Position numbers and translations under genes: made by a program. A stretch of DNA of 34,787 bases from a virus. Its lineage: Duplodnaviria; Heunggongvirae; Uroviricota; Caudoviricetes. Below the pieces are notes generated by a model. It was given only the letters and a program-made list of their open reading frames with translations. It made no database searches and had not been told where the DNA came from. Positions 4,582-31,260 of the stretch are shown here, in pieces; within the stretch, counting starts at the first letter, position 1, and each line of letters starts with the position of its first letter. The stretch lies in the IMG/VR virus record IMGVR_UViG_2630968342_000019; one strand, 5' to 3'.

Positions 4582-5100
4582 TCACAGGCCGATATTGCGG
4601 CGGTGTTGCTCCAGCCGGTCGACGCCGTTCACCTTCTCAATCATGTTGATGGTGTCGATTTCGACCAGCTCCTTACCGTCCATCGTCAGCCGGAAATAGG
4701 TGCAGACCACGGAGATTTTCGACTCGGTGTCTTCTCCCTGTTTACCCTCTCCGGTGTCGATTTCTTTCTGACGTCCACGCATGACCACTTCGACGGCCAC
4801 CGTTTCGCCGGTATCGTCACGCTGGTAAGAGCCTGCAAAACGAATCGGTACGGCATCCACACCGGTTGCGGCGTAAAGCTCCCAGATAACCGAATCCGGG
4901 AAGCCACCGAGCGACCACTCCATTGACAGCGCATCGTCATCAAGGCCGAGGTCTACCGGTGCGCTGCCGTTCATCCCCGCACCGCGATAGTTTTCGAGCT
5001 TACGGGTCAGTTTTGGCAGCGTGACGGACTTTGCAACGCCCTGATAGCTGTAGCCGTTCAGAAAGACGTTCATTAACTTGAGTTTGCGCGGCATTGCCAT
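4582..5100 (-). CDS. FII: Tail tube protein (P2 gpFII-like)
   Basis: 172-aa ORF recognised as P2 FII; immediately downstream of FI. Confidence 0.92.
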   Translation of the reverse strand: MAMPRKLKLMNVFLNGYSYQGVAKSVTLPKLTRKLENYRGAGMNGSAPVDLGLDDDALSMEWSLGGFPDSVIWELYAATGVDAVPIRFAGSYQRDDTGETVAVEVVMRGRQKEIDTGEGKQGEDTESKISVVCTYFRLTMDGKELVEIDTINMIEKVNGVDRLEQHRRNIGL

Positions 5101-5112
5101 CGGTCAGGCTCC

Positions 5113-6303
5113 TTAATTGCTGTTAACCGAGGTGACCAGATTTGCCAGGTATTTATCGGTAATACGCTGGCGCAGGGTCAGGTTTTCAAGAGGAGGCACC
5201 GGTGTATAGTCGTAGTCGATATACAGTTTTCCGGCCTTGAGGGTTTCCGCATCGTTGGATTCTTCGCTGAACCAGCAGGTCGCATCCACGATATAGCCGT
5301 TTGTTTTCAGCTCACGGAATTTGGCATTGATGCCGTCAACGATGTCGCGAATCAGCGTTGCGGTGATGGGCTTGTCCACCGCCCACATGTGCGCCTCAGC
5401 CATCGTGTCGGCCAGCACCTGCGCGGTGCGGGTGTAGTTTTCAAAGAGGAACAGCGGGTCATCAGAGCAGGTACGGTTACCCCAGAATCGGAAACCGTCG
5501 CGGCGAATCAGCGTAGTGACGCCTGACTCGTTAAGCAGGTCAGCATCGGTGCCGGACTCCTGCAAATCCCAGAATACAGATGCGCTGATGCCGGTAACAC
5601 CGTTTACCCCGACGTTGGACAGCGTTTTATGCCAGCCCTGCTCCTGGTCGATTTTGGCACGCAGACCCAGCGCACGGGCGGTGGCATACGCGGTGGCGGT
5701 GGTACTGGTGACCGTATCCCATGCGAGGAAATCCGGCCAGATGACCATCAGCTCACGCTGGCTGAAATTCTGGCGGTAGGCTTTCACCTCGGAAATGGTT
5801 TTACAGCCCCATGCGCTGATATACCCGAAAGCGCGCAGCTTCTGACAGACTGATGCCAGTGCAACCGCCACCTCTTTGGTGTCCAGTCCCGGCACACCGA
5901 GAATACGCGGTTTAACACCGGTAACCGACTCCGCCGCCAGCAGGGCTTTCAGTCCGGTGTACTGACCGTTTTCGTCGGTGGTGCCGATGATATTGGAAAC
6001 GGTCTGCGCAAGTTTCGTTTCTTCGTCATCGCCGTTGCCGTCTTCCACGCGCACGACAACGGTGACCGGTTTTGACTGGTCAGCGATGGCCTGCAACGAC
6101 GCCGCCAGCGTGCCTTTTTTACCGGCCTTTGCAATTGCGCTCTGCACGTTGGTAATCAGCACCGGTTTATTGAGGGGGAAGGTTTCCGCATCCGCATCGC
6201 TGGCCGTGCAGACCATGCCGACAATGGCAGTGGATACGGTGGAAATGACGCGGGTGCCGTCGTTAATCTCCAGCACCTGCACGCCGTGATGATAGTCACT
6301 CAT
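5113..6303 (-). CDS. FI: Contractile tail sheath protein (P2 gpFI-like)
   Basis: 396-aa ORF recognised as P2 FI (N-terminus MSDYHHGVQVLEINDGTRVI...); same length as P2 FI. Confidence 0.93.
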   Translation of the reverse strand: MSDYHHGVQVLEINDGTRVISTVSTAIVGMVCTASDADAETFPLNKPVLITNVQSAIAKAGKKGTLAASLQAIADQSKPVTVVVRVEDGNGDDEETKLAQTVSNIIGTTDENGQYTGLKALLAAESVTGVKPRILGVPGLDTKEVAVALASVCQKLRAFGYISAWGCKTISEVKAYRQNFSQRELMVIWPDFLAWDTVTSTTATAYATARALGLRAKIDQEQGWHKTLSNVGVNGVTGISASVFWDLQESGTDADLLNESGVTTLIRRDGFRFWGNRTCSDDPLFLFENYTRTAQVLADTMAEAHMWAVDKPITATLIRDIVDGINAKFRELKTNGYIVDATCWFSEESNDAETLKAGKLYIDYDYTPVPPLENLTLRQRITDKYLANLVTSVNSN

Positions 6304-6632: not shown

Positions 6633-7226
6633 TCAATTATGTAAATCTTTTGTTTTATGTTCTTTGGCGTGTTGTGACAACAAATGGCTATAGCGTTTAA
6701 GCAAAATATTAGAAAGATTAAGCTCATTCATGAAGTGTTCTTCTAATAAGTAACCATCAATATCAACTTTAATATCATTACCACTTTTCATCTTCTGTAA
6801 CGTAGATTTTACACGCTCCAGCAGGATGCTTTGCTCATGGTAATAGTCCATAAGAAGAGTAACATCCTCTTTATCAAGCTTACTTAATTCGCTGAAGTAG
6901 GATTTAAACACTTTATCAGTCTGGTTTAATGCAATCTGTAAGCGAGGCCCCCCTAATGATTTGACATTAATGGCAAAAGGCTCGCCAACAAAATGCTCCG
7001 AATTTTCGTCAAAGCCAATATATCTCGTTTTATCAAGAAAAGTGAGAGCGCGATGGTTATTAGCGATTTCATATGCAAACATTGTTCTGATACTGTCCCT
7101 CTCAGCCTCCATGCTTATATCATCACGATGATTTGTATAAAATATATTTCCAACAAAGAGAACCATAGCAAGAATCACTGAACTTGCCTCCCAGTTAATA
7201 TTTTTTAATCGTCGCTTAGTAAACAT
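6633..7226 (-). CDS. Hypothetical membrane-anchored protein (moron at the P2 Z/fun hotspot)
   Basis: 197-aa ORF in a markedly AT-rich block between tail-fibre assembly gene G and sheath gene FI; N-terminal basic stretch then a hydrophobic helix (EASSVILAMVLFVGNIFYT); AAGGTG Shine-Dalgarno 4 nt before the ATG; own terminator downstream; no motif I can assign. Confidence 0.6.
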   Translation of the reverse strand: MFTKRRLKNINWEASSVILAMVLFVGNIFYTNHRDDISMEAERDSIRTMFAYEIANNHRALTFLDKTRYIGFDENSEHFVGEPFAINVKSLGGPRLQIALNQTDKVFKSYFSELSKLDKEDVTLLMDYYHEQSILLERVKSTLQKMKSGNDIKVDIDGYLLEEHFMNELNLSNILLKRYSHLLSQHAKEHKTKDLHN

Positions 7227-7447: not shown

Positions 7448-7975
7448 TTATTGCGGCATTTCCGGCCATTCAGGATTTGCAGGATCCACACGACTGACCA
7501 GAACGCTGTAGCGTTCCCATGCTTCCAGTCGGCTACGCTCCTCATCTGTTGCCATGTTCAGTCTGACAGCGCGATCCAGCGGCAAAATCACGGATTCAGC
7601 ATCTGCTAGAAGTCTGGCTTTCCGGTTTTCTGCCTGCTGCTGCAATTCCTCTGCCGTATAAATGCGTTTAATCACTTTGCCGTCCTTAAACATCCAGTTC
7701 CCTGAAATGTCCGCCCGTCGGTTAGCAGTAATATCCGCCACTTCAACAACACTTAATCCATCCGGTCTGATAGCTGTCACATCCTTTTCCACATAGCGGA
7801 TGATATTATCTTTGTCGTACGCTATTTTTAGCGTGTCATCAGCAAAATACTTTTGTTCTTCGTACCAGTTCTTACCATCTTCTGAAAAAAACCAGACAAC
7901 ATCAAAGTCTTTTGTCAATTGATATTGTTCAACCGTTTTTGGATTACCTGCCGTTATATTTATCAAATGCTGCAT
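7448..7975 (-). CDS. G: Tail fibre assembly protein (P2 gpG-like)
   Basis: 175-aa ORF, same length as P2 G; immediately downstream of tail-fibre gene H. Confidence 0.88.
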
Positions 7976-7978
7976 AAA

Positions 7979-10108
7979 TTATACCTGCGCCACGTTATAC
8001 CAAGTCCCGTTAATGTATTTCTGCACCGGTCTGTAATATACGCCACCAATGTTATCGGCAGAGTTTGAGCCGGTATCCTGAACAATAATGCCGGAATATA
8101 CACACCCGGATGGTGCCTGATGTGTCCATGTCATGCCATTGTTCGCAGGTTTGTATGTGGCAGCACCACCAAGCCGGATATCCCGGACATAGCGGGAATC
8201 AAAGTTACCGTAATCCGAGGGATTAACACGCCCCGTAATATTTATGGTTTTATTACTTTGAATGCTACCGGAGACAAAGCGCATAACATGGACGTTATTA
8301 GCATAAACATCCAGATTACCGTCGCCATTTTGTTTAAAGCCCGTGTCATTATCACCCAAAACAATCGAGTTACCGCCAAGAGCACTGGATGTTCCGATAC
8401 CCAGTGCACCATTCAATTGACCTCCAGATAATGACAACGCCCCAACATCAGCAGCAGTTGGTTTAATGTGCGAACTGTAAATTATATATACAGTTCCATC
8501 TGTCAGGCCTGTTGGTTTATTCGCTGTATAAGTTGGTGATGTATGAATCGTTACGCTGGCGTTACTGGTATAATCCCACTGAATATTAACACCCGTGGCA
8601 TAATTACCTATTTCAACATAAACATCATAGGTATCACCGGATGTATTCACCCATGCAAAATTAGTAAATCCAACCGATGTCCGTCGCCATAACGCACCAG
8701 TAAGACCTTTTGGATTTCCATTTCCCGCACGAAGAACAAGTTCAGATATACCAGCCTGCATAGGGGAGTTAACATTATATCCAGCACCACCAATCAGACT
8801 TATGTAAACCACGGAACTGGCCTGTGGCATGGTTACAGTTGCCAGCCTGAACCATCCTGTACCACCACTAAAAGACATGGTTGTTGAATTTGTTGCACCA
8901 ATATTGCGCAGGAATAATCTTTTATCAGGAATATCCGCACCGTTCTGATCTTTCTGAAGACGTTTCTCAGCATTGTCATAGGCAGACTTCACCGCTTTTG
9001 GTGTTGCGGCGAGCGTTTCAGACGTGCTGTTAGTCGCACTACTGAGCTGAACAAGGCCTTTTCGCGCCGTGGTGGCATCCTGCGCAGTATATTTCCCGTT
9101 AGCAAGGTCATACGCGACCTTTACCGCCTTTGGTGTTGCCGCAAGCGTTTCTGAATCGCTGTTGGTGGCGCTACTGAGCTGGACAAGACCTTTTCGCGCC
9201 GTGGTGGCATCCTGTGCGGTATATTTCCCGTTAGCGAGGTCATATGCTGCCTTTACCGCCTTTGGCGTTGCCGCAAGCGTTTCAGAATCGCTGTTGGTGG
9301 CGCTACTGAGCTGAGCAAGCCCTTTTCGCGCTGTGGTGGCGTCCTGTGCAGTGTATTTCCCGTTAGCAAGGTCATATGCTGTCTTTACTGCTTTTGGCGT
9401 TGCGGCGAGCGTTTCAGACGTGCTGTTAGTCGCACTACTGAGCTGAACAAGGCCTTTTCGCGCCGTGGTGGCATCCTGCGCAGTATATTTCCCGTTAGCA
9501 AGGTCATATGCGGCCTTTACCGCTTTCGGCGTTGCGGCCAGTGTTTCAGACGTGCTGTTGGTCGCACTGCTTAACTGAGTAAAACCTTTTGCGGTCAGCG
9601 AGGCGTCCGGGTGACGTCGTGACTGTTCGTGCTCTGCAATTTTGTCATCAACGTAATCCTGCGTCGCCATCACCGTTGTGGTGTCAATGGTCAGCGCCAC
9701 TGAGGCCACACTGCTGACGATGATGACCATGCGACAGGTCTGCGAACGCCCTGAGCCTTCGGCAAGAGCTGGCTTATAACTTTCGGCCATGTTCGCCACG
9801 GCAATTAATGTTCCCGCATCATCGTACAGGCCAAGCTCACGCATCCAGAAACCGCCCACCTCCGGCGGAATAACCAGCTCTGCGATAATATAATTACTGT
9901 TTCGTTTGTCCTGACTGATTTTGTTCAGCGCATGTCGCCAGACTTCGTGGATAAGCCCGGTCTGTCCGGCATCCGGGACAGGCAATTTACCACCGCCATC
10001 CCCGACGGCCATCGTGGTAATGTTGACCTTCCGCCCTCCCGGTGCGGTTGCCGCTGCCAGCTTTGCTGCACCGGCAGTGGTGATAACGGTTTTGAATTTT
10101 GTGCTCAT
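7979..10108 (-). CDS. H: Tail fibre protein (P2 gpH-like) with five internal ~44-aa repeats
   Basis: 709-aa ORF; N-terminal ~160 aa recognised as the conserved P2 H baseplate-attachment region; central five-fold repeat LSSATNS(T/D)SETLAATPKAVK.AYDLANGKYTAQDATTARKGL typical of phage tail-fibre repeats; divergent C-terminal receptor-binding part. Confidence 0.9.
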   Translation of the reverse strand: MSTKFKTVITTAGAAKLAAATAPGGRKVNITTMAVGDGGGKLPVPDAGQTGLIHEVWRHALNKISQDKRNSNYIIAELVIPPEVGGFWMRELGLYDDAGTLIAVANMAESYKPALAEGSGRSQTCRMVIIVSSVASVALTIDTTTVMATQDYVDDKIAEHEQSRRHPDASLTAKGFTQLSSATNSTSETLAATPKAVKAAYDLANGKYTAQDATTARKGLVQLSSATNSTSETLAATPKAVKTAYDLANGKYTAQDATTARKGLAQLSSATNSDSETLAATPKAVKAAYDLANGKYTAQDATTARKGLVQLSSATNSDSETLAATPKAVKVAYDLANGKYTAQDATTARKGLVQLSSATNSTSETLAATPKAVKSAYDNAEKRLQKDQNGADIPDKRLFLRNIGATNSTTMSFSGGTGWFRLATVTMPQASSVVYISLIGGAGYNVNSPMQAGISELVLRAGNGNPKGLTGALWRRTSVGFTNFAWVNTSGDTYDVYVEIGNYATGVNIQWDYTSNASVTIHTSPTYTANKPTGLTDGTVYIIYSSHIKPTAADVGALSLSGGQLNGALGIGTSSALGGNSIVLGDNDTGFKQNGDGNLDVYANNVHVMRFVSGSIQSNKTINITGRVNPSDYGNFDSRYVRDIRLGGAATYKPANNGMTWTHQAPSGCVYSGIIVQDTGSNSADNIGGVYYRPVQKYINGTWYNVAQV
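8960..9640 (-). repeat. Tandem ~132-bp coding repeats (about 5 copies) inside tail-fibre gene H
   Basis: Nucleotide motif ttcgcgc(c/t)gtggtggc recurs at 9061, 9193, 9325 and 9457 (period 132 bp); the protein repeat is visible in the H translation. Confidence 0.8.
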
Positions 10109-10118
10109 TATTCCTCAC

Positions 10119-10649
10119 TTATCCGGGGTAAACCGTAATTACATCGCCGTCGTAAGCCACACCACCGGCGAACAGGTAGCCGGGAATGTCCCGGGTAATG
10201 TTCAGGCCAATAAGGTGGCGGCTTGCAGGTTTGGCATCAGCAATCAGCCGTTCCATTTCCTGATACATTGCCTCTGTGATGCCACTTTCCAGTACACCAA
10301 TATCAAGCCGGAAGGTGCCGGGCGGGTCACTGTTTTCCCACCACTCCGTCACGTTGATGAGATAGCCGAGCGGCTCCACCACACGCCGGATTGCACCTAT
10401 AGTGCCTTTATGACAGTGGATGAAATACGCATCGCGGATAACGGCGCGTTTTGTCGCTTCCGGCCACTTTTCATCCCACCTGTCGACCGAAAACGCCCAC
10501 GCCAGCCACGGCAGCAGATTTGCCGGACAGGTGTCCGGGTTCCACAGCTCACGAATACTGACCGGCGTTTTTTCAATTTCCGCACAGGCTTTTGCGGCGG
10601 CGACCTCAAGCGGTGATGAGCCGGTCGGCAGCAGTCGCGAATCACTCAT
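10119..10649 (-). CDS. I: Baseplate assembly protein (P2 gpI-like)
   Basis: 176-aa ORF, same length as P2 I, recognised as gpI. Confidence 0.92.
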   Translation of the reverse strand: MSDSRLLPTGSSPLEVAAAKACAEIEKTPVSIRELWNPDTCPANLLPWLAWAFSVDRWDEKWPEATKRAVIRDAYFIHCHKGTIGAIRRVVEPLGYLINVTEWWENSDPPGTFRLDIGVLESGITEAMYQEMERLIADAKPASRHLIGLNITRDIPGYLFAGGVAYDGDVITVYPG

Positions 10650-11212
10650 CCGAGCCTCCGGTCACGACGCGGTATTCGGTACAGAAAGACGCCTGCGTAC
10701 TGTTGAGCACGATGTCGGCCAGTGGTGCAGCCAGTTCGACACGCTGCACACCTTCCACATGCAAAGCGGCATAAATGGCAGACAGACGGATGTCGCGCCC
10801 CAGCCGGTGCTGTGCCGTGATATACGCTTCCAGTTTTTTCACGGCGGCAGCGCGAATGGGTTCGCTTTCGGGACCAGGGTAAAGGTAAAGCGTGGCGTTT
10901 ATCTGGTATTCAACGATGGCGGCAGACTGCACGGTCACGCGGTCGGCCACCGGCCTGACGTCCTCGCCATTAAGGGCGTTACGCACCACCGCCAGCAGGT
11001 CTTCGGATGCGACACCGTTATTTTCACGTGACAGCACAGAGATGGTGACGCAGGCCGGAGACGGACTGGTTACAGAAATATCCGCGACACGCCCGTCGGC
11101 ACTGCGACCATGATACTGATAGGCCCCCACCGACCCGGCGACGCTTAAACCTTCAAACGCCTGCTGAATACGCAGACGATAATCCGTGTCAGATTCCATC
11201 ACTGCCGGTGTC
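10642..11212 (-). pseudogene. J: Baseplate protein J, C-terminal fragment ('J), separated from its N-terminus by an IS insertion
   Basis: Translation ...TQTPAVMESDTDYRLRIQQAFEGL... is the C-terminal ~190 aa of P2 gpJ. The annotated 201-aa ORF begins inside the IS terminal repeat; genuine J sequence resumes at the target-site duplication. Confidence 0.85.
11207..11212. repeat. Target-site duplication, left copy (GGTGTC)
   Basis: The 6 bp immediately left of the IS terminus TGCGTATT are identical to the 6 bp immediately right of the other terminus (13810..13815). Removing the IS plus one copy restores an open J frame encoding ...STLPPTPAVMESD... Confidence 0.65.
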
Positions 11213-11297
11213 TGCGTATTACCGTGAAGGAGATCGGTGAGTAACATCGATGGAGATCGGTTCGTGTCACTTTCACAGAACCGTTTTTAAATTACCT

Positions 11298-12049
11298 TCA
11301 CTGATCTCCTTCGGTCAACGGAGATTGTATTTTCCGCATTGATTCTCCTTTAAGTTCGATCTTGATACTGCCATGAACCAGTCGATCTAGGATGGCATCC
11401 GCATGTGTGGAGTCTCCGATCATTTTGTACCAGTTTTCCACCGGCAACTGGCTCACTACGATGATTGAGCCTCGTTGGTACATCAGATCCACTATTTCCA
11501 GCAGGTCGCTACGCTGTTCTGATGAGAGAGGTTCCAGCCCCCAGTCATCCAGAAGCAGCAGATCGCTATTATTCAGCCAGGTCAAAAGTTTGCTGTATCT
11601 TCCATCAGCATGCCCCTGATAGCACTGTTCCATCAGCGCTTTAAGGCGATAATAGTAGACCTTGTATCCCTGTCGGCAGGCATTATGACCAAGTGCACAT
11701 GCCAGGAACGTTTTACCGCTGCCGGTGGCCCCGGTCAGTAAAATATTTTGTTTCAGGGTTAACCAGTTTCCCTGACTGAGTGAACGGATGAGGGCCCTGT
11801 CCAGCCCTCTATTGTTACGATAATCCAGCTTTGATAACTCAGCATTAAGTCTGAACCGTGCATGTTTGATCAGACGCTCTGCCTTCCTGTTTTCACGGCA
11901 GGTTAGTTATTCTGCTGTCAGTAATGACAGGCGTTCTTCGAAGCCCCAGCTCCTGGTATGTGCCCGGCTGAGCAAGTTGCTTTTTAAGCGCATCACGGAA
12001 GCCGGTGAGTTTAAGTGCGGTCAGTTGTTCGTAAAGATGATTCATCATT
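11298..12049 (-). pseudogene. istB: istB (IS21-family helper ATPase), apparently disrupted
   Basis: The Walker A region LLTGATGSGKTFLA and the C-terminal 111 aa are IstB-like. Upstream, the frame starting at the ATG (12049; MMNHLYEQLTALKLTGFRDALKKQLAQPGTYQELG...) is out of register with the Walker A frame (apparent +1 base near ctggggcttcgaa), and that frame has an in-frame TAA after ...FEERLSLLTAE. Confidence 0.55.
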
Positions 12050-12059
12050 GGATCCCGTA

Positions 12060-13616
12060 TCAGTGGTAATACTCACTGCCGCGTACGTTTTCGTGTTCCA
12101 TCGTGGATAACAGATCTGGTTTTGGATCCTGAACAGGTTGTTTATCCAGACCTTTTTCCAGGATCGATTTAATACCTGACAGACGCCATACCTTTGTTTT
12201 CAGAGCTCTTGCACATGCTGCATTAAGTCTGGCTTTACTGTATTTTTTATGAAGGTTCAGGAGTCCAAGGCAGAAGCGATAGCTTTGTTCCGGATGTGGA
12301 CGAGAGTTCAGTATATGAAGCACATAACTATGAGTTTCACTGCCTATGTGCCCCGCCCATTCCAGAAGACGCTCTGGCGTCCAGGTGGCATGCTGTCGAT
12401 GAGCTTCAGGCATGTGCGACCCTTCGGGTTCTGTGACCGTACCATAAGTATATGCAAGGTATAAGTCGCTTGCGCGGGGCACAGCAACTCTGCCCCTGAT
12501 TGAAGAGCTTCCATTCTCCGGAGACCATGCTTTTTTCAAGTGGGGCCTAAACGGACCCGGAAACGAGTAGTAATGTTTGTCGATTTCCACGTGGTAATCG
12601 GCATGAACTCTGACTTTCTTCACCAGGGTGTAACTGTAACTGGCTTCAGGAAGAGGCTTCAGTGCGGGTTTATCAAGCTGGATGAAGAGTTCTGCACGTG
12701 AATAACCCAACTTCTGCATTATTTTGTTATTCAGTCTTTCCAGCAACTCCCGAATGCGCTGATTAAGCGATGCAAGGCTGTAGAAGATCTCATGCCTGAT
12801 TCGGGCCATGATCCAGCGTTCAACAACCTGAACGCCAACTTCAGCTTTGGCTTTATCTTTCGGTTTACGTGGCCGCGCAGGCAAAACTGCGACATTATAA
12901 TGCTCAAGCATCTGCTGGTAGGTAGGGTTAACGTCAGGATCATACTTACATGCCCTGGATGTGGCGCTTTTCAGATTGTCCGGAACAACAAGTTCAGGAA
13001 CGCCACCCAACCACTGGAAGCAGCGAACATGACTCATCACCCAGTCTTCAAGCTGCTGAGACCAGGTGGCCTCTGCCCATGTGTAACTTGATGCCCCGAG
13101 AACAGCTACGATGACCTGAGCAGTTCTTATTTCTCCGGTCTCAGGGTCGGTAACGCCAACGGTAGGTCCACAGTAATCAACGAAAAGTTTTTCGCCAGCT
13201 TTATGTACCAGACGCATTGATGGTGAAGTGGTTTTGAGCCATTCACGGTACATCCGGCAGTAATGGTTATAGCTGTAAAAACCGCCTGGATTACGCTCAC
13301 AGTATTCTTCCCAGAGTAGCTGCAGCGTCACGCATTTATTACGCAGTTCCCGGTGTACTGTAGCCCAGTCAGGCAGAGAGTGCTTCTTCATCTTAACCTG
13401 GGTCTGAAGGAACGCATGTTTTAGTTTTGTATCATCCCATCCTGTAGGTAAGGGCCACTGCTTTATGCCAAGTTGAGCCGCCCGATTAGCATATCTGGAT
13501 ACAACGGAAGGGGAGATTGCAAGACTACGACCAATTTGTCGATGGCTGAGTCCAACACCGTATTTAAGCCTAAGAATTTCTTTAAGTTTTCTCATAGAAA
13601 TTGGAACTGTTGGCAT
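12060..13616 (-). CDS. istA: IS21-family transposase IstA
   Basis: 518-aa ORF with an N-terminal helix-turn-helix region, a DDE-type integrase core and the conserved IstA C-terminus (...HYYSFP...WTPERLLEWAGHIG...GIKSILEKGLD...); ATG at 13616. Confidence 0.85.
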   Translation of the reverse strand: MPTVPISMRKLKEILRLKYGVGLSHRQIGRSLAISPSVVSRYANRAAQLGIKQWPLPTGWDDTKLKHAFLQTQVKMKKHSLPDWATVHRELRNKCVTLQLLWEEYCERNPGGFYSYNHYCRMYREWLKTTSPSMRLVHKAGEKLFVDYCGPTVGVTDPETGEIRTAQVIVAVLGASSYTWAEATWSQQLEDWVMSHVRCFQWLGGVPELVVPDNLKSATSRACKYDPDVNPTYQQMLEHYNVAVLPARPRKPKDKAKAEVGVQVVERWIMARIRHEIFYSLASLNQRIRELLERLNNKIMQKLGYSRAELFIQLDKPALKPLPEASYSYTLVKKVRVHADYHVEIDKHYYSFPGPFRPHLKKAWSPENGSSSIRGRVAVPRASDLYLAYTYGTVTEPEGSHMPEAHRQHATWTPERLLEWAGHIGSETHSYVLHILNSRPHPEQSYRFCLGLLNLHKKYSKARLNAACARALKTKVWRLSGIKSILEKGLDKQPVQDPKPDLLSTMEHENVRGSEYYH

Positions 13617-13809
13617 AGGTATCCTTTACCGGAATGGCAAAAGATACAGATCAACACACCTGTGAAGTTCCAATAACATTGATGGAGATCACTGAATAAC
13701 AAAATGAGTCAAAAGTGATCTCCATCGATGTTATTCAGCGATCTGTTCAAATGTTATTACCCGATCTCGATGGAAGTTATTGAGTGATCTCCTTTCATGA
13801 AAATACGCA

Positions 13810-13815
13810 GGTGTC
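13810..13815. repeat. Target-site duplication, right copy (GGTGTC)
   Basis: Identical to 11207..11212 and immediately abutting the IS terminus. Confidence 0.65.
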
Positions 13816-24815: not shown

Positions 24816-26774
24816 ATGTCAGATTTCGAAATTAAAATTGATTTGAATGTGCTAAATCACCTAGGGATGAGTCTCTATTCCAATACTCCCGCGGTACTAA
24901 CTGAGATTATATCAAATGCATGGGATGCAGATGCTCAAAATGTAGAAATTACACTTGATGTTGAGAAAGGAGAGGTCATCATTAAAGATGATGGTCATGG
25001 CATGTCTAAAGATGACATTATTAATAAGTTCCTAAAAGTCGGTTATGCTCGCAGGGAACATGGAAGAGCCAAAAGCGATCATCTAAAACGTCAAGTTATG
25101 GGCAGAAAAGGTATTGGTAAGCTTGCCATGTTTTCACTTGCCAATAAAATCCAAGTTTATTCTTACAAAAAGGGGGAACAGCCTCAGGCCTTTGAGGTAG
25201 ATGTCAAAGATTTACAGCAAAGTATCAAAGAATCAAAAAACTATATTGCTGACTCCCTTGAAATACCCGAAAATCTTGCTTACGGCACTACAATTAAATT
25301 ATTTGAACTAAAAAAAGCCATTGATAGGACTCAAACTTACCTCAGAAAGCGAATAGCTCGTCGATTTAGCATTATTGGCCCCAACCATAACTTTACAGTT
25401 AAAATTAATGGGACCGATATTACACCGGCAGATAGAGATTTCCTTTCAGATCTCGAGTTCATTTGGGAATTTGGCGAATCCGACCCTGAAAGGATAAAAT
25501 CCTGCACAAACATCACACAAAAAAACATATTACCAAATACTATTACCTTTGAAGGAAAAGATGTAAAAGTTAGTGGGTACATTGGCAGTGTAGTTAAGCC
25601 ATCACAGTTAAAGAAAGACCCTGAAATATCTAACAACAGCATTACTGTAATCTCTCACGGACGTGTTTTTGAGGAGGACATATTATTAGAATTTGGAAGT
25701 GCTAAAGTATTCACCAATTATCTGGTCGGTGAAATAGTCGCCGATTTTCTAGATGATAACGAAAAGCCTGATATGGCAACATCTTCTCGTCAAAAACTAC
25801 AACAGAATGATCCAAGATACCCTGTACTTAAAGGTTTTCTGGAAAGAACGCTACAACTAATCGATAAAGATTGGGATAAATGGAGACGCGAAAAAGGAGT
25901 AAATGAAGTTAAAAGCAATACTCCAATAGTAAGTGAATGGCTGAATTCTCTCAAAAAACATGAGAGAGAAAGTGCCGAAAAGTTAATTGGACGAGTAAAC
26001 ACATTCCGTTTTTCTGGTAATGAGGAAGAACAAAAAGCAGCAAGAAAAACCGTATTAAAAAATACGGTATTAGCCTTTGAAAGACTTAGAATTCAAGACA
26101 ACCTTGATGCATTAGATAAAATAAGCAACCTTCAATCAGAAAATTTTAAAGATGTATTTGCATCTGTCAATGACATTGAAGCAAGCATGTTTTATGAAAT
26201 TACTTCGCAACGCCTTAAAGTAATTGAAAAATTCCAAAAAATAACTGATGAAAATCAGCTTGAAAGAGCTGTACAAATGTATTTATATGATCATTTATGG
26301 TTATTGGATCCTTCATGGGAAAGAGTCACAGGCACATCTGTTATGGAGCAAACATTGACCAAGGAACTAAAACAGATAAACCCTGATGCTGCTAGCGGTG
26401 CTCGTATTGATATCGCTTTCAAAACCGTTTCTGGCAAGCATGTAATTATTGAGATGAAACGACCTAAAGTGCACCCAGATATAATGAACCTAGTCGCACA
26501 AGGTAATAAATATGTACAGGCAACGACACAATGGTTCTCCAATAACCCTAAAAATTGCCCAGGTGGAAATATACCGCATATAGAAGTAATATTCCTGGTT
26601 GGCTCTGGATATTTACAAGAGAACCAACACTTTATAAATATGCAATTACTTTCTATCAATGGAAAAATATTGACATATAATGACCTAATCGTGCAATCAA
26701 AACAAGCCTATGCTGAATATCAAGACAAAAAGAATGATGCAGCTAGAATTATGAAAATAGTTGAGGGAATCTAA
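24816..26774 (+). CDS. GHKL-type (Bergerat-fold) ATPase fused to a predicted PD-(D/E)xK-like nuclease domain; cargo at the P2 tin/old position
   Basis: 652-aa ORF with an AAGGA Shine-Dalgarno. N-terminal GHKL motifs read directly: N-box E-IIS-NAWDA, G1 box DDGHGM, G2 box GRKGIG. C-terminal region contains ...GARIDIAF-x11-VIIEMKRPK..., consistent with a D...E-x-K nuclease core. AT-rich composition contrasts with the phage core. Confidence 0.75.
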   Translation: MSDFEIKIDLNVLNHLGMSLYSNTPAVLTEIISNAWDADAQNVEITLDVEKGEVIIKDDGHGMSKDDIINKFLKVGYARREHGRAKSDHLKRQVMGRKGIGKLAMFSLANKIQVYSYKKGEQPQAFEVDVKDLQQSIKESKNYIADSLEIPENLAYGTTIKLFELKKAIDRTQTYLRKRIARRFSIIGPNHNFTVKINGTDITPADRDFLSDLEFIWEFGESDPERIKSCTNITQKNILPNTITFEGKDVKVSGYIGSVVKPSQLKKDPEISNNSITVISHGRVFEEDILLEFGSAKVFTNYLVGEIVADFLDDNEKPDMATSSRQKLQQNDPRYPVLKGFLERTLQLIDKDWDKWRREKGVNEVKSNTPIVSEWLNSLKKHERESAEKLIGRVNTFRFSGNEEEQKAARKTVLKNTVLAFERLRIQDNLDALDKISNLQSENFKDVFASVNDIEASMFYEITSQRLKVIEKFQKITDENQLERAVQMYLYDHLWLLDPSWERVTGTSVMEQTLTKELKQINPDAASGARIDIAFKTVSGKHVIIEMKRPKVHPDIMNLVAQGNKYVQATTQWFSNNPKNCPGGNIPHIEVIFLVGSGYLQENQHFINMQLLSINGKILTYNDLIVQSKQAYAEYQDKKNDAARIMKIVEGI

Positions 26775-26779
26775 TTATA

Positions 26780-26803
26780 CCCCCCTGTTTTTTGACAGGG
26801 GGG
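26780..26803. terminator. GC-rich hairpin between convergent genes (probable bidirectional terminator)
   Basis: Perfect 9-bp stem CCCCCCTGT / ACAGGGGGG with loop TTTTTG, placed between the stop of the GHKL gene (26774) and the stop of the methyltransferase (26816); flanking U-tracts are weak. Confidence 0.5.
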
Positions 26804-26815
26804 ATGACATAAGTT

Positions 26816-27865
26816 TTAAATATTCATTTCTGACAAATGTTTTAAAATAGTTTCACCTACGACCTCACCAAGCCTAACAGGAACAGCATTACCTATTAAA
26901 CGCGCAACTGTTCTCATTTCAATTTTTACATCATCAGGCCAAAACTCATACTTTTCTGGGAATGACTGTAATAGCGCAGCCTCTCTTAAACTTAATGCTC
27001 TATTTTGGACAGGGTGCCCAAAGCGTCCATTCCCATATCCAATACATTGAGTTGTAATTGTCGGTCCAAGTTTATCCCAACACATTCTCCCATATACAGC
27101 AGTATATGTAGAACCACTTTCTTTTGTATGACATTTTGCTCTTAGCTCTTCTGGCCAATCACGCCATGTTCCACCAGGTTTTGATGCCATTATTCTTTTT
27201 ATATTAATATCAGATAATGATGCAGAGCGATGTAGTTTATCTCCAGCGTGAACAGCACCGGCACTAATTTCAGGAAGATTACCGATTATATCTCGCACCG
27301 TTTTATAATCATTCTTCTCATGAGTTGGTGGAATTATTTCTATTTCTCCATATTTTGATGCCAATAACACTAATCTTGAACGACTTTGTGCCATTCCATA
27401 GTCTGGACAAAACACCACCCCATACCAAACAAAATAGCCATCATTTTTAAGAGACTTAATGAAGTCCTTAAAAACCTTATGATTCACCACTCGGGGAACG
27501 TTTTCCATTGTAATAATATCTGGCTTTGCAAATTTAATTTGCTTAGCAAAGCTATAAAGCAAAGACCATCTTTTATCTTTTGAACGTACTACCCCTAATT
27601 TAGCACTATTAGTATAGCTTGAAAAAGGTTGGCATGGGGCACAACCAGCCAAAACTCGAACCTTCGCTCCTTCGAAATATTTAACTAATTCGCCGTCCTC
27701 AATGTCTGTAACACTTTTCTGGACAAAGAGTGATTTATTATTTGTCTCATAGGCAAATCGACAGGCTGCATCTATATCATAACCTGCAACTACATTAAGC
27801 CCCGACTTCTGAAGACCGTGAGTCAAGCCACCCGCGCCACAGAATAAATCAACAACCTTAATCAA
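26816..27865 (-). CDS. DNA (cytosine-5)-methyltransferase, Dcm-type
   Basis: C5-MTase motifs read from the translation: motif I DLFCGAGG, motif IV PCQPFS, motif VI ENV (TMENVPRVV), motif VIII QSRSR. Likely start is the TTG at 27865 (M/L-IKVVDLFCGAGG) preceded by AAGGAGG with a 6-nt spacer; the track ORF is extended to an upstream TTG at 27967. Confidence 0.85.
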   Translation of the reverse strand: MIKVVDLFCGAGGLTHGLQKSGLNVVAGYDIDAACRFAYETNNKSLFVQKSVTDIEDGELVKYFEGAKVRVLAGCAPCQPFSSYTNSAKLGVVRSKDKRWSLLYSFAKQIKFAKPDIITMENVPRVVNHKVFKDFIKSLKNDGYFVWYGVVFCPDYGMAQSRSRLVLLASKYGEIEIIPPTHEKNDYKTVRDIIGNLPEISAGAVHAGDKLHRSASLSDINIKRIMASKPGGTWRDWPEELRAKCHTKESGSTYTAVYGRMCWDKLGPTITTQCIGYGNGRFGHPVQNRALSLREAALLQSFPEKYEFWPDDVKIEMRTVARLIGNAVPVRLGEVVGETILKHLSEMNI

Positions 27866-27933
27866 GATAAACCTCCTTCTAATGCTGTGGGGATTGTAGC
27901 ATTGTTCTTTCTCATCATCGATGTTTACTTGAT

Positions 27934-27960
27934 GCTTGATTTGTGAATACAAAATCAAGC
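27934..27960. promoter_or_regulatory. 9-bp inverted repeat in the A-methyltransferase intergenic region (candidate operator or attenuator)
   Basis: GCTTGATTT (27934..27942) and AAATCAAGC (27952..27960) with a 9-bp spacer, between the A stop and the methyltransferase ribosome-binding site; no U-tract follows. Confidence 0.35.
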
Positions 27961-27976
27961 ATGTCAATCATTATTG

Positions 27977-30256
27977 TTAGTTTGTTTCAAATCCCGCCCA
28001 ACCATCAGAAATCGGATATGAAAACGTTTTCCCATCATAATTTACGGTCGCGCCACGCGCCAGCGCCTCAAGCTCCCATCGCTGCGGCCTGATACCGTTC
28101 TGAGCAAGGTCAACGCGGATACGGGTAATTTGCATTCTTTCCGACCGGGTCAGTCTGGCCGATGGTGCAATTTCATGTGGTTTTAACGAGCTTCCGTTTC
28201 TTTGCTGACGACTTGGCGTTCTCCGACCGTGTTTTAATGCACCTCTGAGCGCCCTCACGACCTCCGGGTCACTCCATTCGATAACACCGTCATCAACCAG
28301 ATTAAGCACTGCTGCGGCGTGCTCAGAAGGTGTGGGAGCCGGTAACGAAGTATCACCACCGGTGAGTTTTCCACAGTTATTGACAGGACTCCGAGGCGCG
28401 GCGATGCCGCTTTTTAAAGTCAAAGGCTCAACGACCGGCACTTTCGGAACAATGCGCCAGTCCGTCGTTCTGGTGATATGAATATGACGCGCGCCGAGAT
28501 GCGGCGCGTAAATGCCGACCACTCTCTCGACTTCTTCCTCGTACTCGTTAACTTCATCCGACGGACTACGGGCAACCCTGACAGTCTGACAATCGCGCGG
28601 AACATTTGCTCCACCCTGCGCGCTGATATACAACGCAAAATCACCACTGTCTGCGGCAGCGCGTGCAGCCTCGACGCGTTCGTCAAACTCATCAGCAATG
28701 CTGACGCCGCGAGGCAATTTGCGTAGTTCACGGTAAGCCCCCATTGTCGGCAGGCCAACCGTTTTAAATTGCGGAATGCGCCACGTTGACGCCCATGCGG
28801 TAACAGCCGCGGCAGTGTCTTTCAGCGGCCTGCCGGTATCGTTATCGAGCTGACCATCCAGTGCATAGCCATCGATGTTTTTTGAAATGTATTTCGCGAT
28901 ATACCCCGCAGCACCGCCCCGGTTAAGGTGTTTTGCCTGAAAACGGTTTCGCGCAGCTCCTCTTTCGTCGCCATCCTCTTTGAGCGCGTAGCGACGCATG
29001 ATTTCAATAATCTGGTTACGCTGGCGTGGATTACAAAAAAGCATCATATGCCAGTGCGGCGTTCCGTCGTGGTGTGGCTCGACGACTCGCAAACCGTAGA
29101 CCTGTAAATCATTATCCTTGAATGCCGTGCGCATCAGGCTCCAGATACGGCAGAGATAACGCTGCGCATCCTTTGGATTAAATGCCTCATCGTTCCAGCC
29201 GTGATTTAGCTGGACGGTTTTACTTTCTCCTTTTCCGACCTGACGTGTCGGGTGATACTTTGACGGCGCGGTCAGCGTGATAAACATCCCCACATCACCC
29301 TCTGCTGCGGCGTAACGCTCAATACCGGCGATGGTGTTCATCAGCTCCATCCGGCGAATTTCTGGATTAGAAATACTGCCCATCACCTTACTGATAAGGT
29401 CGATGCGCTCGCCGGTTTCCTTGTTTTCAAGGTCACACGATTTAAGAAACTCCAGATTTGCCTGGCGGCGCGCACGCACATCACGAATGGCATGTTTACT
29501 GGCATAAGGAGAACGGTCTTTATTGACCTCCCCGACAGCAATCAGTAACGCCTCATGCCAGCGCATACGCTGGCCTTTAAGCTGATGAGTCCACCACTCA
29601 TCGTTAAACAGACGGGCAATGGCAGAATATGCCTGCCTCGTGGTTATCTGTCCTTTACGGTATTTTTTCCAGTAGAGCGGGGAAATATTGAAAGCACGTG
29701 CAGCGCCAGCAACATGACCATACAGGTGAGTCTGCGCCTCATCCGTAAACAGCGATTCTTTTTCGCCATGTGCATCAACCCATGCATCGCAGAGTTCCTC
29801 ATACATCATGAAAAGCTGCGATGAGATACGGGCGGCAAACTTTTTCAGCTCCTTGTCATTCATTCCAGGCAGGCGCGCATAGTGGTCACGCTCTGCCAGA
29901 AACAGCAACGACGCGTCGGTGTTCATTTCATGGCGCTGATTCACGCGCTCAATGCGCGGCCATAAACGACGCTGAAAAGTGGATGTGAGGAAATAAAACC
30001 CGTGCACCGGGCTTTTATTGCGCCGGATGTAGTCATAGCGTGAAGTAAACAGCGAGCGCAAAAAGTAAGGCAGGCGGTTAATCGTGGATAAAACACCTTG
30101 CACCTGACGCATCTCGTCACGTGTAAGGGGTCTTTCGCGCCCGACGGCCTCGCGTGGCGCGTTCCATGCATAAGCACCGGTAAACGCCTTACCGGTGCCT
30201 GCAGCAAATGCTGACGGAGGTACGCAGGTGTATTGCTCCTGGAAAGAATGACTCAT
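27977..30256 (-). CDS. A: Replication initiation protein (P2 gpA-like rolling-circle endonuclease)
   Basis: 759-aa ORF (P2 A is about 761 aa) recognised as gpA; last gene of the early operon on this strand. Confidence 0.92.
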   Translation of the reverse strand: MSHSFQEQYTCVPPSAFAAGTGKAFTGAYAWNAPREAVGRERPLTRDEMRQVQGVLSTINRLPYFLRSLFTSRYDYIRRNKSPVHGFYFLTSTFQRRLWPRIERVNQRHEMNTDASLLFLAERDHYARLPGMNDKELKKFAARISSQLFMMYEELCDAWVDAHGEKESLFTDEAQTHLYGHVAGAARAFNISPLYWKKYRKGQITTRQAYSAIARLFNDEWWTHQLKGQRMRWHEALLIAVGEVNKDRSPYASKHAIRDVRARRQANLEFLKSCDLENKETGERIDLISKVMGSISNPEIRRMELMNTIAGIERYAAAEGDVGMFITLTAPSKYHPTRQVGKGESKTVQLNHGWNDEAFNPKDAQRYLCRIWSLMRTAFKDNDLQVYGLRVVEPHHDGTPHWHMMLFCNPRQRNQIIEIMRRYALKEDGDERGAARNRFQAKHLNRGGAAGYIAKYISKNIDGYALDGQLDNDTGRPLKDTAAAVTAWASTWRIPQFKTVGLPTMGAYRELRKLPRGVSIADEFDERVEAARAAADSGDFALYISAQGGANVPRDCQTVRVARSPSDEVNEYEEEVERVVGIYAPHLGARHIHITRTTDWRIVPKVPVVEPLTLKSGIAAPRSPVNNCGKLTGGDTSLPAPTPSEHAAAVLNLVDDGVIEWSDPEVVRALRGALKHGRRTPSRQQRNGSSLKPHEIAPSARLTRSERMQITRIRVDLAQNGIRPQRWELEALARGATVNYDGKTFSYPISDGWAGFETN

Positions 30257-31260
30257 TCACATACACCGGCATAGACACTACTGCAAACTGACTTATCATT
30301 CACCGAAGCCAGCAAATCAAACTGTGCCCCGCCACGCGTGGTCATCGCCCAGTCACGATAAGACTCAATTCCGTAAGCATCGACAGTAATAATATCAATG
30401 CGGCGTTCCGCACGACGCGGGTCATGAGTTGACGGGAAGAAAGTAGAATTTCCGCGTCTGGAGCATGCGGCGACAAGTCGCTCCCATTCCGCAACACGCT
30501 TAACCTCTTCCGGCCAGCGACTAAAAATTTCAGCTAATTCAGACTTTCTGGCGTGGATGCAGGGCATACAACCGACACGACTGCATCCCTGCTGGTATAA
30601 CGGATTAGGTTTAATTCCATGACGTCTTGCAAATGCAAATACCTCCTCATGCGTCCAGTTCAGAATAGGACGGTATACATGGAGCCCGGGCGTATTGTCC
30701 GCATCCTCTTCCCAGGCAGGCAGACCCGCGCGCGCAGGAGACTCCTGAGCGCGAACCCCCTGCCAGCTAATTACCTCATCAAACTCATTAAGCGCAGGTA
30801 ACACGACCTGAGTACGTACTGGCTCATGTTTAAGGTCAAAAGTGCAAAATCTGGCTTTAGTGGAAGGAAATCGCCCTTTCCACATGCACAAATCAAGAAA
30901 TGGGATACCAGTAGGCTTGAGAATTTCCAGCGCACAATTGATGCGCTCTGCCGCTTCCCCCGGAGACATTCCGCACTCTTCAACCAGAGAAACAGGCCAT
31001 TTCTCAGCAATAAACTTGCGCTTACCTTCAATCTGTCGGGAGAAGTCAGCTTTAACCCGTTTAACCGGCCCGAGTCGGTTCTCCAGATAATCGAGATACT
31101 CCATTGTCTGCGGATGCTCATGCCCGGTGTCTGCAAAAACCGGCAAAAAATGCACACCGCTTTCAATACCAACAAGCCATTGAGCAAGGCTATCCTTTCC
31201 GCCAGAAACAGAAATAATATTGATAGAGCTTTCAGCTCGGCAGCGGGTATCAACTATCAT
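30253..31260 (-). CDS. PAPS reductase family (PP-loop ATP pyrophosphatase) protein, DndC/CysH-like
   Basis: 335-aa ORF with PP-loop SGGKDS near the N-terminus, DTGHEHPQT motif and a C-terminal cysteine cluster (CSRVGCMPC); stop overlaps the A start, so it is translationally coupled in the early operon. Not part of the P2 reference gene set as I recall it. Confidence 0.8.
   Translation of the reverse strand: MIVDTRCRAESSINIISVSGGKDSLAQWLVGIESGVHFLPVFADTGHEHPQTMEYLDYLENRLGPVKRVKADFSRQIEGKRKFIAEKWPVSLVEECGMSPGEAAERINCALEILKPTGIPFLDLCMWKGRFPSTKARFCTFDLKHEPVRTQVVLPALNEFDEVISWQGVRAQESPARAGLPAWEEDADNTPGLHVYRPILNWTHEEVFAFARRHGIKPNPLYQQGCSRVGCMPCIHARKSELAEIFSRWPEEVKRVAEWERLVAACSRRGNSTFFPSTHDPRRAERRIDIITVDAYGIESYRDWAMTTRGGAQFDLLASVNDKSVCSSVYAGVCE

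Follow-up and report, generated by a model that had tools for sequence, protein, structure and literature searches.

Introduction

The tail fibre repeat family treated here was reportedly known by the early 1990s, as were its occurrence in P2 gpH and the mosaic evolution of such fibre genes; Haggard-Ljungquist et al. are said to have described them in 1992. In-frame repeat shafts are also found in the fibres of phages of lactic acid bacteria, where relatives differ by whole units. The present analysis concerns a stretch of 34,787 nucleotides (the window) and the repeat array in its tail fibre gene H.

The units of the window H belong to PF03406 (Phage_fiber_2, IPR005068), the 'Pf2' repeat, which also occurs in Mu tail fibre S and in the side tail fibres of lambdoid prophages. 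Mu S and the window H share the DNA(x)xRLxKDxNGADIP junction behind the repeats, but Mu S carries a single unit (residues 112-154) and the window H five, in strict tandem without spacers. The collagen-like fibre proteins of EHEC prophages also contain Pf2 units (PMC3368898); in the EPclB proteins, unlike the window H, the Pf2-type repeat lies between two collagen domains (PMC3368898). The collagen-like and heptad-repeat shafts of lambdoid fibres resemble the array in being in-frame arrays in trimeric fibres whose length varies by whole units (PMC3368898), but those units are low-complexity and of 3 or 7 residues, against a folded domain of 44 residues in H.

In P2, gpH forms a homotrimeric fibre of ~54 nm that is joined to the C-terminus of gpI and has "two repeat domains (RBPseg-D19)" past the adaptor domain (bioRxiv 10.64898/2026.09.14.750843). 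Unit number was not addressed in the RBPseg paper or in the paper on P2-like diversity.

Prophage and fibre locus

The window was identical (100%) to positions 5069154-5103940 of the E. coli G6/7 chromosome (NZ_CP060061.1), and likewise to the corresponding DNA of strain G8. By annotation this is a P2-like prophage site, with fieF/ogrK on one side, cpxP on the other and the usual P2 late genes present. The fibre genes and the adjoining insertion were placed as follows.

7448..7975, minus strand: gene G, tail fibre assembly chaperone, 175 aa, downstream of H (PF02413, E 1.2e-34)
7979..10108, minus strand: gene H, P2-type tail fibre protein, 709 aa, WP_047660222.1 (open reading frame; PF12571 plus five PF03406 matches); annotated in NZ_CP060061.1 as 'tail fiber protein'
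10119..10649, minus strand: gene I, baseplate wedge protein holding the fibre, upstream of H (PF09684, E 6e-56)
11213..13809, minus strand: ISEc12, IS21 family, 2597 bp, inside baseplate gene J (annotation, comparison with intact J, junction sequences)

The role of gene I as the fibre attachment protein was taken from the P2 cryo-EM preprint (bioRxiv 10.64898/2026.09.14.750843). A first-pass annotation of the same DNA had called the gene tail fibre H of a P2-like prophage, which was borne out by the J-I-H-G gene order, by PF12571 and by the PF02413 gene downstream. Synteny with P2 was kept on both sides of H (J and I upstream, G downstream), with J split by ISEc12. The element was flanked by a 6-bp target duplication, GGTGTC, at 11207-11212 and 13810-13815, and its istA was frameshifted. 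The disruption of J was absent from the first-pass annotation. A prophage with J split in this way is defective and should not produce tails; because of the split, the G6/7 fibre is probably out of use, and its H, intact and idle, is probably an allele in storage, not a fibre at work.

Repeat array in gene H

Tandem Repeats Finder reported a single array with a period of 132 nt and 4.5 copies at 8975-9568 (matches 87%, score 873), and a repeat search of the window gave four 264-nt copies at exact 132-nt spacing. Read in protein register, the array consisted of five in-frame, head-to-tail units of 132 nt (44 aa), running from 9604 to 8945 on the minus strand and covering H residues 169-388. Five 132-bp copies had previously been placed in H at 8960-9640, which was right in number and place, with edges ~15-35 nt off. 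H was divided as follows.

9656..10108, minus strand: N-terminal baseplate-attachment (tail-collar fibre) domain, residues 1-151 (PF12571, E 1.9e-58; nearly identical to P2 H)
9473..9604, minus strand: repeat unit 1, residues 169-212 (PF03406; most divergent at its N-terminal edge, ASLTAKGFT...)
9341..9472, minus strand: repeat unit 2, residues 213-256 (PF03406)
9209..9340, minus strand: repeat unit 3, residues 257-300 (PF03406)
9077..9208, minus strand: repeat unit 4, residues 301-344 (PF03406)
8945..9076, minus strand: repeat unit 5, residues 345-388 (PF03406; aligns with Mu tail fibre S residues 105-175)
7979..8944, minus strand: H residues 389-709, the distal part of the shaft with the receptor-binding tip, low in GC (~42%) and horizontally exchanged (GC profile, pDEC12A-1 identity, PDB matches)

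PF03406, "Phage tail fibre repeat", matched H five separate times (323.2 bits against a gathering cut-off of 22, E 9.5e-99), and each unit covered model positions 1-41 of 42. For a family of ~40-residue fibre repeats the period was exactly 44 aa (132 nt), with PF12571 in the same protein, and H had many matches to PHROG tail fibre families. The final 11 codons of unit 5 were already within the Mu S-like junction (DNAEKRLQKDQ).

The earlier description of the units as nearly identical did not hold for the DNA: nucleotide identity of unit pairs was 65-91% over all five and 84-91% among internal units 2-4, and each pair differed at at least 12 of 132 positions. As protein the internal units were 93-95% identical, with 8-15 synonymous and 2-3 non-synonymous codon differences per pair. 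This DNA divergence between units argues against very frequent expansion and contraction. Plus-strand open reading frames inside the array (e.g. 9069-9314) were considered as genes and rejected as repeat echoes opposite the well-supported H.

Searches of the PDB with the whole protein and with a five-unit profile found the unit only in deposited chains of Mu fibre S (cryo-EM entry 9KI1; crystal entries 5YVQ and 8JU3). In the cryo-EM entry the fibre is built at its N-terminus only. An AlphaFold2 monomer model of residues 154-408, made with a 44-sequence alignment, had a mean pLDDT of 39 and a pTM of 0.16, too low for use with a fibre that is a trimer in P2.

Comparison with P2 gpH

The window H and P2 gpH (AAD03286.1, 669 aa) share the gene order, a chaperone gene of the same type downstream of H, nearly identical first 168 residues, the start of the repeats at residue 169 and an extreme C-terminal motif, QKYINGTWYNVAQV. 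The near identity, which takes in the PF12571 attachment domain, extended over residues 1-242. P2 gpH has two units against five in the window H, and the two proteins diverged directly after TPKAVK of unit two. Past the array P2 gpH has another and longer middle part, the distal part being 426 aa in P2 and 334 aa in the window H. Overall protein identity was 64% for H, and 74% for the window G against P2 gpG.

It had been proposed that the repeats make H about 40 residues longer than P2 H. The difference itself stands (709 against 669), but its proposed cause does not: three more units (+132 aa) are set against a distal part shorter by 92 aa, and the 40-residue excess is a coincidence of opposite length changes.

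The two repeat domains of the P2 preprint correspond to the two PF03406 units of P2 H, from which we infer one unit per serial shaft domain. If each unit adds one 'repeat domain', as in the P2 model, copy number would translate into fibre length (bioRxiv 10.64898/2026.09.14.750843), and 54 nm spread over 669 residues suggests, very roughly, ~3.5 nm per unit.

Unit number among relatives

Unit number was compared in four sets of relatives. The IMG/VR sample comprised 80 loci with a 98-100% identical N-terminal domain, among which 76 H genes were complete. For the E. coli genomes units were counted from match spans, 59 of the 60 covering at least 80% of the query. Database relatives of the N-terminal 212 aa (the best 120 listed) were all 194-371 aa long and mostly 'partial', and were unfit for the census.

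IMG/VR, 76 complete H genes: 2 units (15), 3 units (2), 4 units (46), 5 units (13)
60 best-matching complete E. coli genomes: 5 units (38), 4 units (19), unclear (3)
Isolated Peduovirus phages: P24C9, 1 unit; P2, 2 units; fiAA91-ss and P37, 3 units; 9W and vB_YpM_46, 4 units
GTDB species representatives (n = 22): 1-4 units

With the window, L001, L002 and P2 added to the IMG/VR count, the figures were 2 units (16), 3 (2), 4 (47) and 5 (15). Across 108 P2-type H genes the number ran from 1 to 5, and in 108/108 the array started at residue 168-169, directly after PF12571. Comparison among related prophages, proposed earlier as a check, thus gave a variable number. Five units was the highest in the sample and common in E. 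coli, and was found only in prophages and viral contigs; other Peduovirus isolates differed from the window H in this respect, those checked having 1-4 units and none five. Of the 60 complete E. coli genomes closest to the window, 38 had the 709-aa five-unit allele (36 besides G6/7 and G8), as did 10 of the 80 IMG/VR P2-type loci. Other 709-aa alleles (WP_062888819.1 and those of IMG/VR loci L004, L008 and L011) agreed with WP_047660222.1 in length, in having five units and in distal module.

The first-pass annotation had held that such arrays expand and contract by recombination, and the relatives supported this in exact 132-nt steps. The GDAR2-2 protein was 99% identical to the window H and shorter by exactly one unit (132 nt); the missing unit of this four-copy allele was placed at gene offset 954-956, in the region of units 4/5. 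Each of four distal-module classes had alleles of n and n+1 units (665/709, 657/701, 749/793 and 772/816 aa), and all length variants observed stayed in frame. Some alleles had adjacent identical units, in-register exact repeats of 140-197 nt, which look like fresh duplications. At a threshold of 97% identity the units fell into 91 types, a resolution too fine for a unit phylogeny, and this clustering served only to spot adjacent identical units.

Unit number was also strongly correlated with what followed the array. Genes with a P2-type distal part always had two units (17/17), and classes with the Mu S-like junction had 4-5. Because number is tied this strongly to distal-module type, it may largely be inherited with the distal module, or be neutral.

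Exchange between units

A 110-nt exact direct repeat lay within the array, its copies three units (396 nt) apart; other in-register exact runs were only 23-29 nt.

9399..9508, minus strand: donor in the 110-nt exact direct repeat, covering the unit 1 end and most of unit 2
9003..9112, minus strand: recipient in the 110-nt exact direct repeat, covering the unit 4 end and most of unit 5

Compared with any one of the four nearest 709-aa alleles, the window had 13-14 substitutions within the downstream 110-nt copy, and at all diagnostic sites in 9003-9112 the window base was the base 396 nt upstream (14/14). By this pattern of bases, 9112-9003 is a gene-conversion tract with 9508-9399 as its source (unit 1/2 boundary to unit 4/5 boundary). 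In unit 5 it replaces S with T at one residue and D with T at another. E. coli E275a (Chile) had the same tract with one mismatch and differed by 1 nt across the whole array; in lacking this tract, the other 709-aa alleles differed from those of G6/7, G8 and E275a.

Among ten 709-aa alleles, synonymous codon differences numbered 343 in 2200 codons of the array against 229 in 4890 codons of the flanks. They were thus 3.3 times denser in the array, an excess that fits continual shuffling of unit variants. The E. coli genomes with a match to this H region had a median of 2 and a maximum of 12 matching places, so donors for conversion are available.

Distal edge of the array

GC content was ~55% across proximal H and the array and dropped to ~42% at ~8980, the distal edge of unit 5. 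Beyond the edge, window positions 8187-8884 had 94.8% nucleotide identity to a fibre gene of the P1-like phage-plasmid pDEC12A-1, in which a recombinase gene adjoins several tail-fibre and tail-fibre-assembly genes with alternative fibre ends. The array with ~450 nt of distal sequence matched lambdoid side tail fibre genes at ~78%, and in the PDB sequence search the H tip matched Mu S and the short tail fibre of phiTE. By the GC drop and these matches, the distal edge of the array is a module junction. It is reasonable to see distal H and G as an exchangeable host-range module, the classic picture for such genes. This had been the first-pass proposal for the array together with the C-terminal tip and G, and the GC drop, the pDEC12A-1 identity and the divergence of G from P2 G agreed with it.

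Interpretation and alternatives

With a probability of about 85%, the five PF03406 copies are taken to form the proximal shaft of the gpH trimer, with units that recombine and distal modules that are swapped, in an allele that sits in a defective prophage. The array would be the proximal shaft between the N-terminal baseplate-attachment domain and the exchangeable distal receptor-binding part. The 44-residue units of the three chains would together make one discrete 'repeat domain', and copy number would set the length of the proximal shaft. By their genetic behaviour, the in-frame 132-nt units, with exact runs of 23-110 nt, act as substrates of homologous recombination: unequal exchange adds or removes whole units with the frame kept, and gene conversion shuffles silent variants between units, and between the arrays of co-resident prophages. 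Distal host-range modules of P2-, Mu-, P1- and lambdoid-type fibres are swapped at the conserved last unit, which acts as their joint.

Copy number could instead be a neutral by-product of module swapping, the units serving mainly as homology patches or linkers, each joining event leaving more or fewer of them and length not being selected; this is plausible, but we lean against it. Copy number does follow distal class, which favours the by-product account, and the point at which P2 H and the window H diverge falls exactly at a unit end, as the GC break falls at the array edge. Plaque-forming Peduovirus isolates, moreover, function with 1, 2, 3 or 4 units. Yet the internal units are conserved as protein while their DNA differences are mostly silent, which indicates purifying selection on the protein and not merely on DNA homology, and one-unit changes also occur within a single distal class without a module swap; together these favour a real structural role. 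A further proposal makes unit number an evolvable length adjuster co-selected with the receptor-binding module, with silent divergence selected to damp recombination. We consider this unlikely. If it were true, fibre reach would be matched, for example, to the depth of O-antigen or capsule, high silent divergence would stabilise the chosen length, and five units would be the long-reach extreme of the P2-type series.

That the five-copy count is an assembly artefact, an expansion or mis-join in G6/7, is highly improbable. This repeat family does break short-read assemblies (the best 120 relatives listed were short, and most of the source-named ones were 'partial'), and the matched E. coli genomes have a median of 2 matching places and up to 12. 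Every unit pair differs at enough positions for reads to be placed, however, the identical array stands in two complete genomes (G6/7 and G8) with E275a 1 nt away, and five units in the same frame and length recur in 38 of the 60 closest complete genomes and in ten IMG/VR contigs. A programmed high-frequency switch (a contingency locus, or an invertible or diversity-generating host-range system) is less probable still. It would account for copy number being polymorphic among close relatives, and the related fibre genes of P1-like plasmids lie in an invertase-controlled segment. Against a contingency locus, the 132-nt units are long, divisible by 3 and diverged and all variants are in frame, so that frame or expression is never switched, and just two unit counts prevail in the 60 closest genomes. 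No invertase or reverse transcriptase gene was found between I and FI in the ORF list and the RefSeq annotation, as an invertible fibre segment or diversity-generating retroelement would have, and the surroundings of H and G carry no annotated recombinase, reverse transcriptase or alternative fibre end.

Implications

The array belongs to a familiar repeat family and lies in a well-described gene, its allele is common and its prophage defective, and its importance beyond careful annotation is small. As the exchange joint, its distal edge offers natural fusion points to those who design chimeric P2 or tailocin fibres, and 1-4 units were tolerated in the plaque-forming isolates checked. Caution is advised with short-read assemblies, which the H gene often fragments. 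The usable additions are the census of 1-5 units, the direct evidence of one-unit gain and loss, and the 110-nt conversion tract. In E275a, the same H allele adjoins a G gene cut by IS2.

Tail fibre, repeat array and tail module

For the distal part of the tail fibre gene H, window positions 8187-8884 were matched at 94.8% nucleotide identity by positions 5001-5698 of the locus taken from pDEC12A-1, a 97-kb P1-like phage-plasmid, where the match falls in part of a 1439-aa tail fibre gene. Such high identity indicates that P2-like and P1-like fibres have recently exchanged sequence. On pDEC12A-1, a recombinase gene adjoins several tail-fibre and tail-fibre-assembly genes.

Adjacent identical repeat units were observed in three P2-type H genes from IMG/VR (type strings, one character per unit clustered at 97% identity: L024, nMMo; L045, FGHHI; L040, 1GMM2). 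In-register exact repeats extended over 197 nt, 140 nt and 71 nt, respectively, and these alleles look like very recent duplications of a single unit. For residues 1-212 of H, the 120 best-scoring relatives listed from the database (P0001-P0120) were all short (194-371 aa), and most of the source-named entries among them were labelled 'partial'. This pattern suggests that the repeat array of H, or sequence close to it, is where many short-read assemblies break; the array is also common to other prophage fibre genes within the same genomes.

Baseplate gene J is interrupted by an insertion sequence.

Insertion in gene J
11213-13809: ISEc12 (IS21 family, 2597 bp), a clean insertion within J
11207-11212 and 13810-13815: 6-bp target duplication GGTGTC, flanking ISEc12

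As J is interrupted, the prophage is predicted to be defective for tail assembly; istA of this ISEc12 copy is itself frameshifted. The nearest non-clonal relative of the window H allele was that of E. coli E275a (L113), with 19 nt differences over 2130. In E275a, the adjoining tail fibre assembly chaperone gene G (L113 1-714) is cut short by IS2, and thus, with ISEc12 in J of the window, both lineages carrying the converted H allele have IS-inactivated tail modules.

Accessory genes

Further genes were located between G and the sheath gene, between the portal gene and replication gene A, and beside gene A.

Accessory genes in the window
6633-7226 (-): 197-aa ORF, 35% GC, hydrophobic segment at the N-terminus
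24816-27967: type II restriction-modification pair, between the portal gene and gene A
within 24816-27967 (+): BbrUII/HgiDII-family endonuclease
within 24816-27967 (-): C5 cytosine methyltransferase
30253-31260 (-): PAPS-reductase-family protein, adjoining gene A

The restriction-modification pair lies at the position that tin and old take up in the P2 gene order. Against defence-system models, the PAPS-reductase-family protein matched SspD (E = 8.6e-22), BrxP (E = 1.1e-15) and, weakly, DndC, and it may have a DNA-modification or anti-defence function. The 197-aa ORF, between G and the sheath gene, occupies the slot held by fun(Z) in P2, and could be cargo that serves in lysogenic conversion or defence; it had no Pfam or PADLOC match, and its sole match was phrog_3829, a family annotated as of unknown function.
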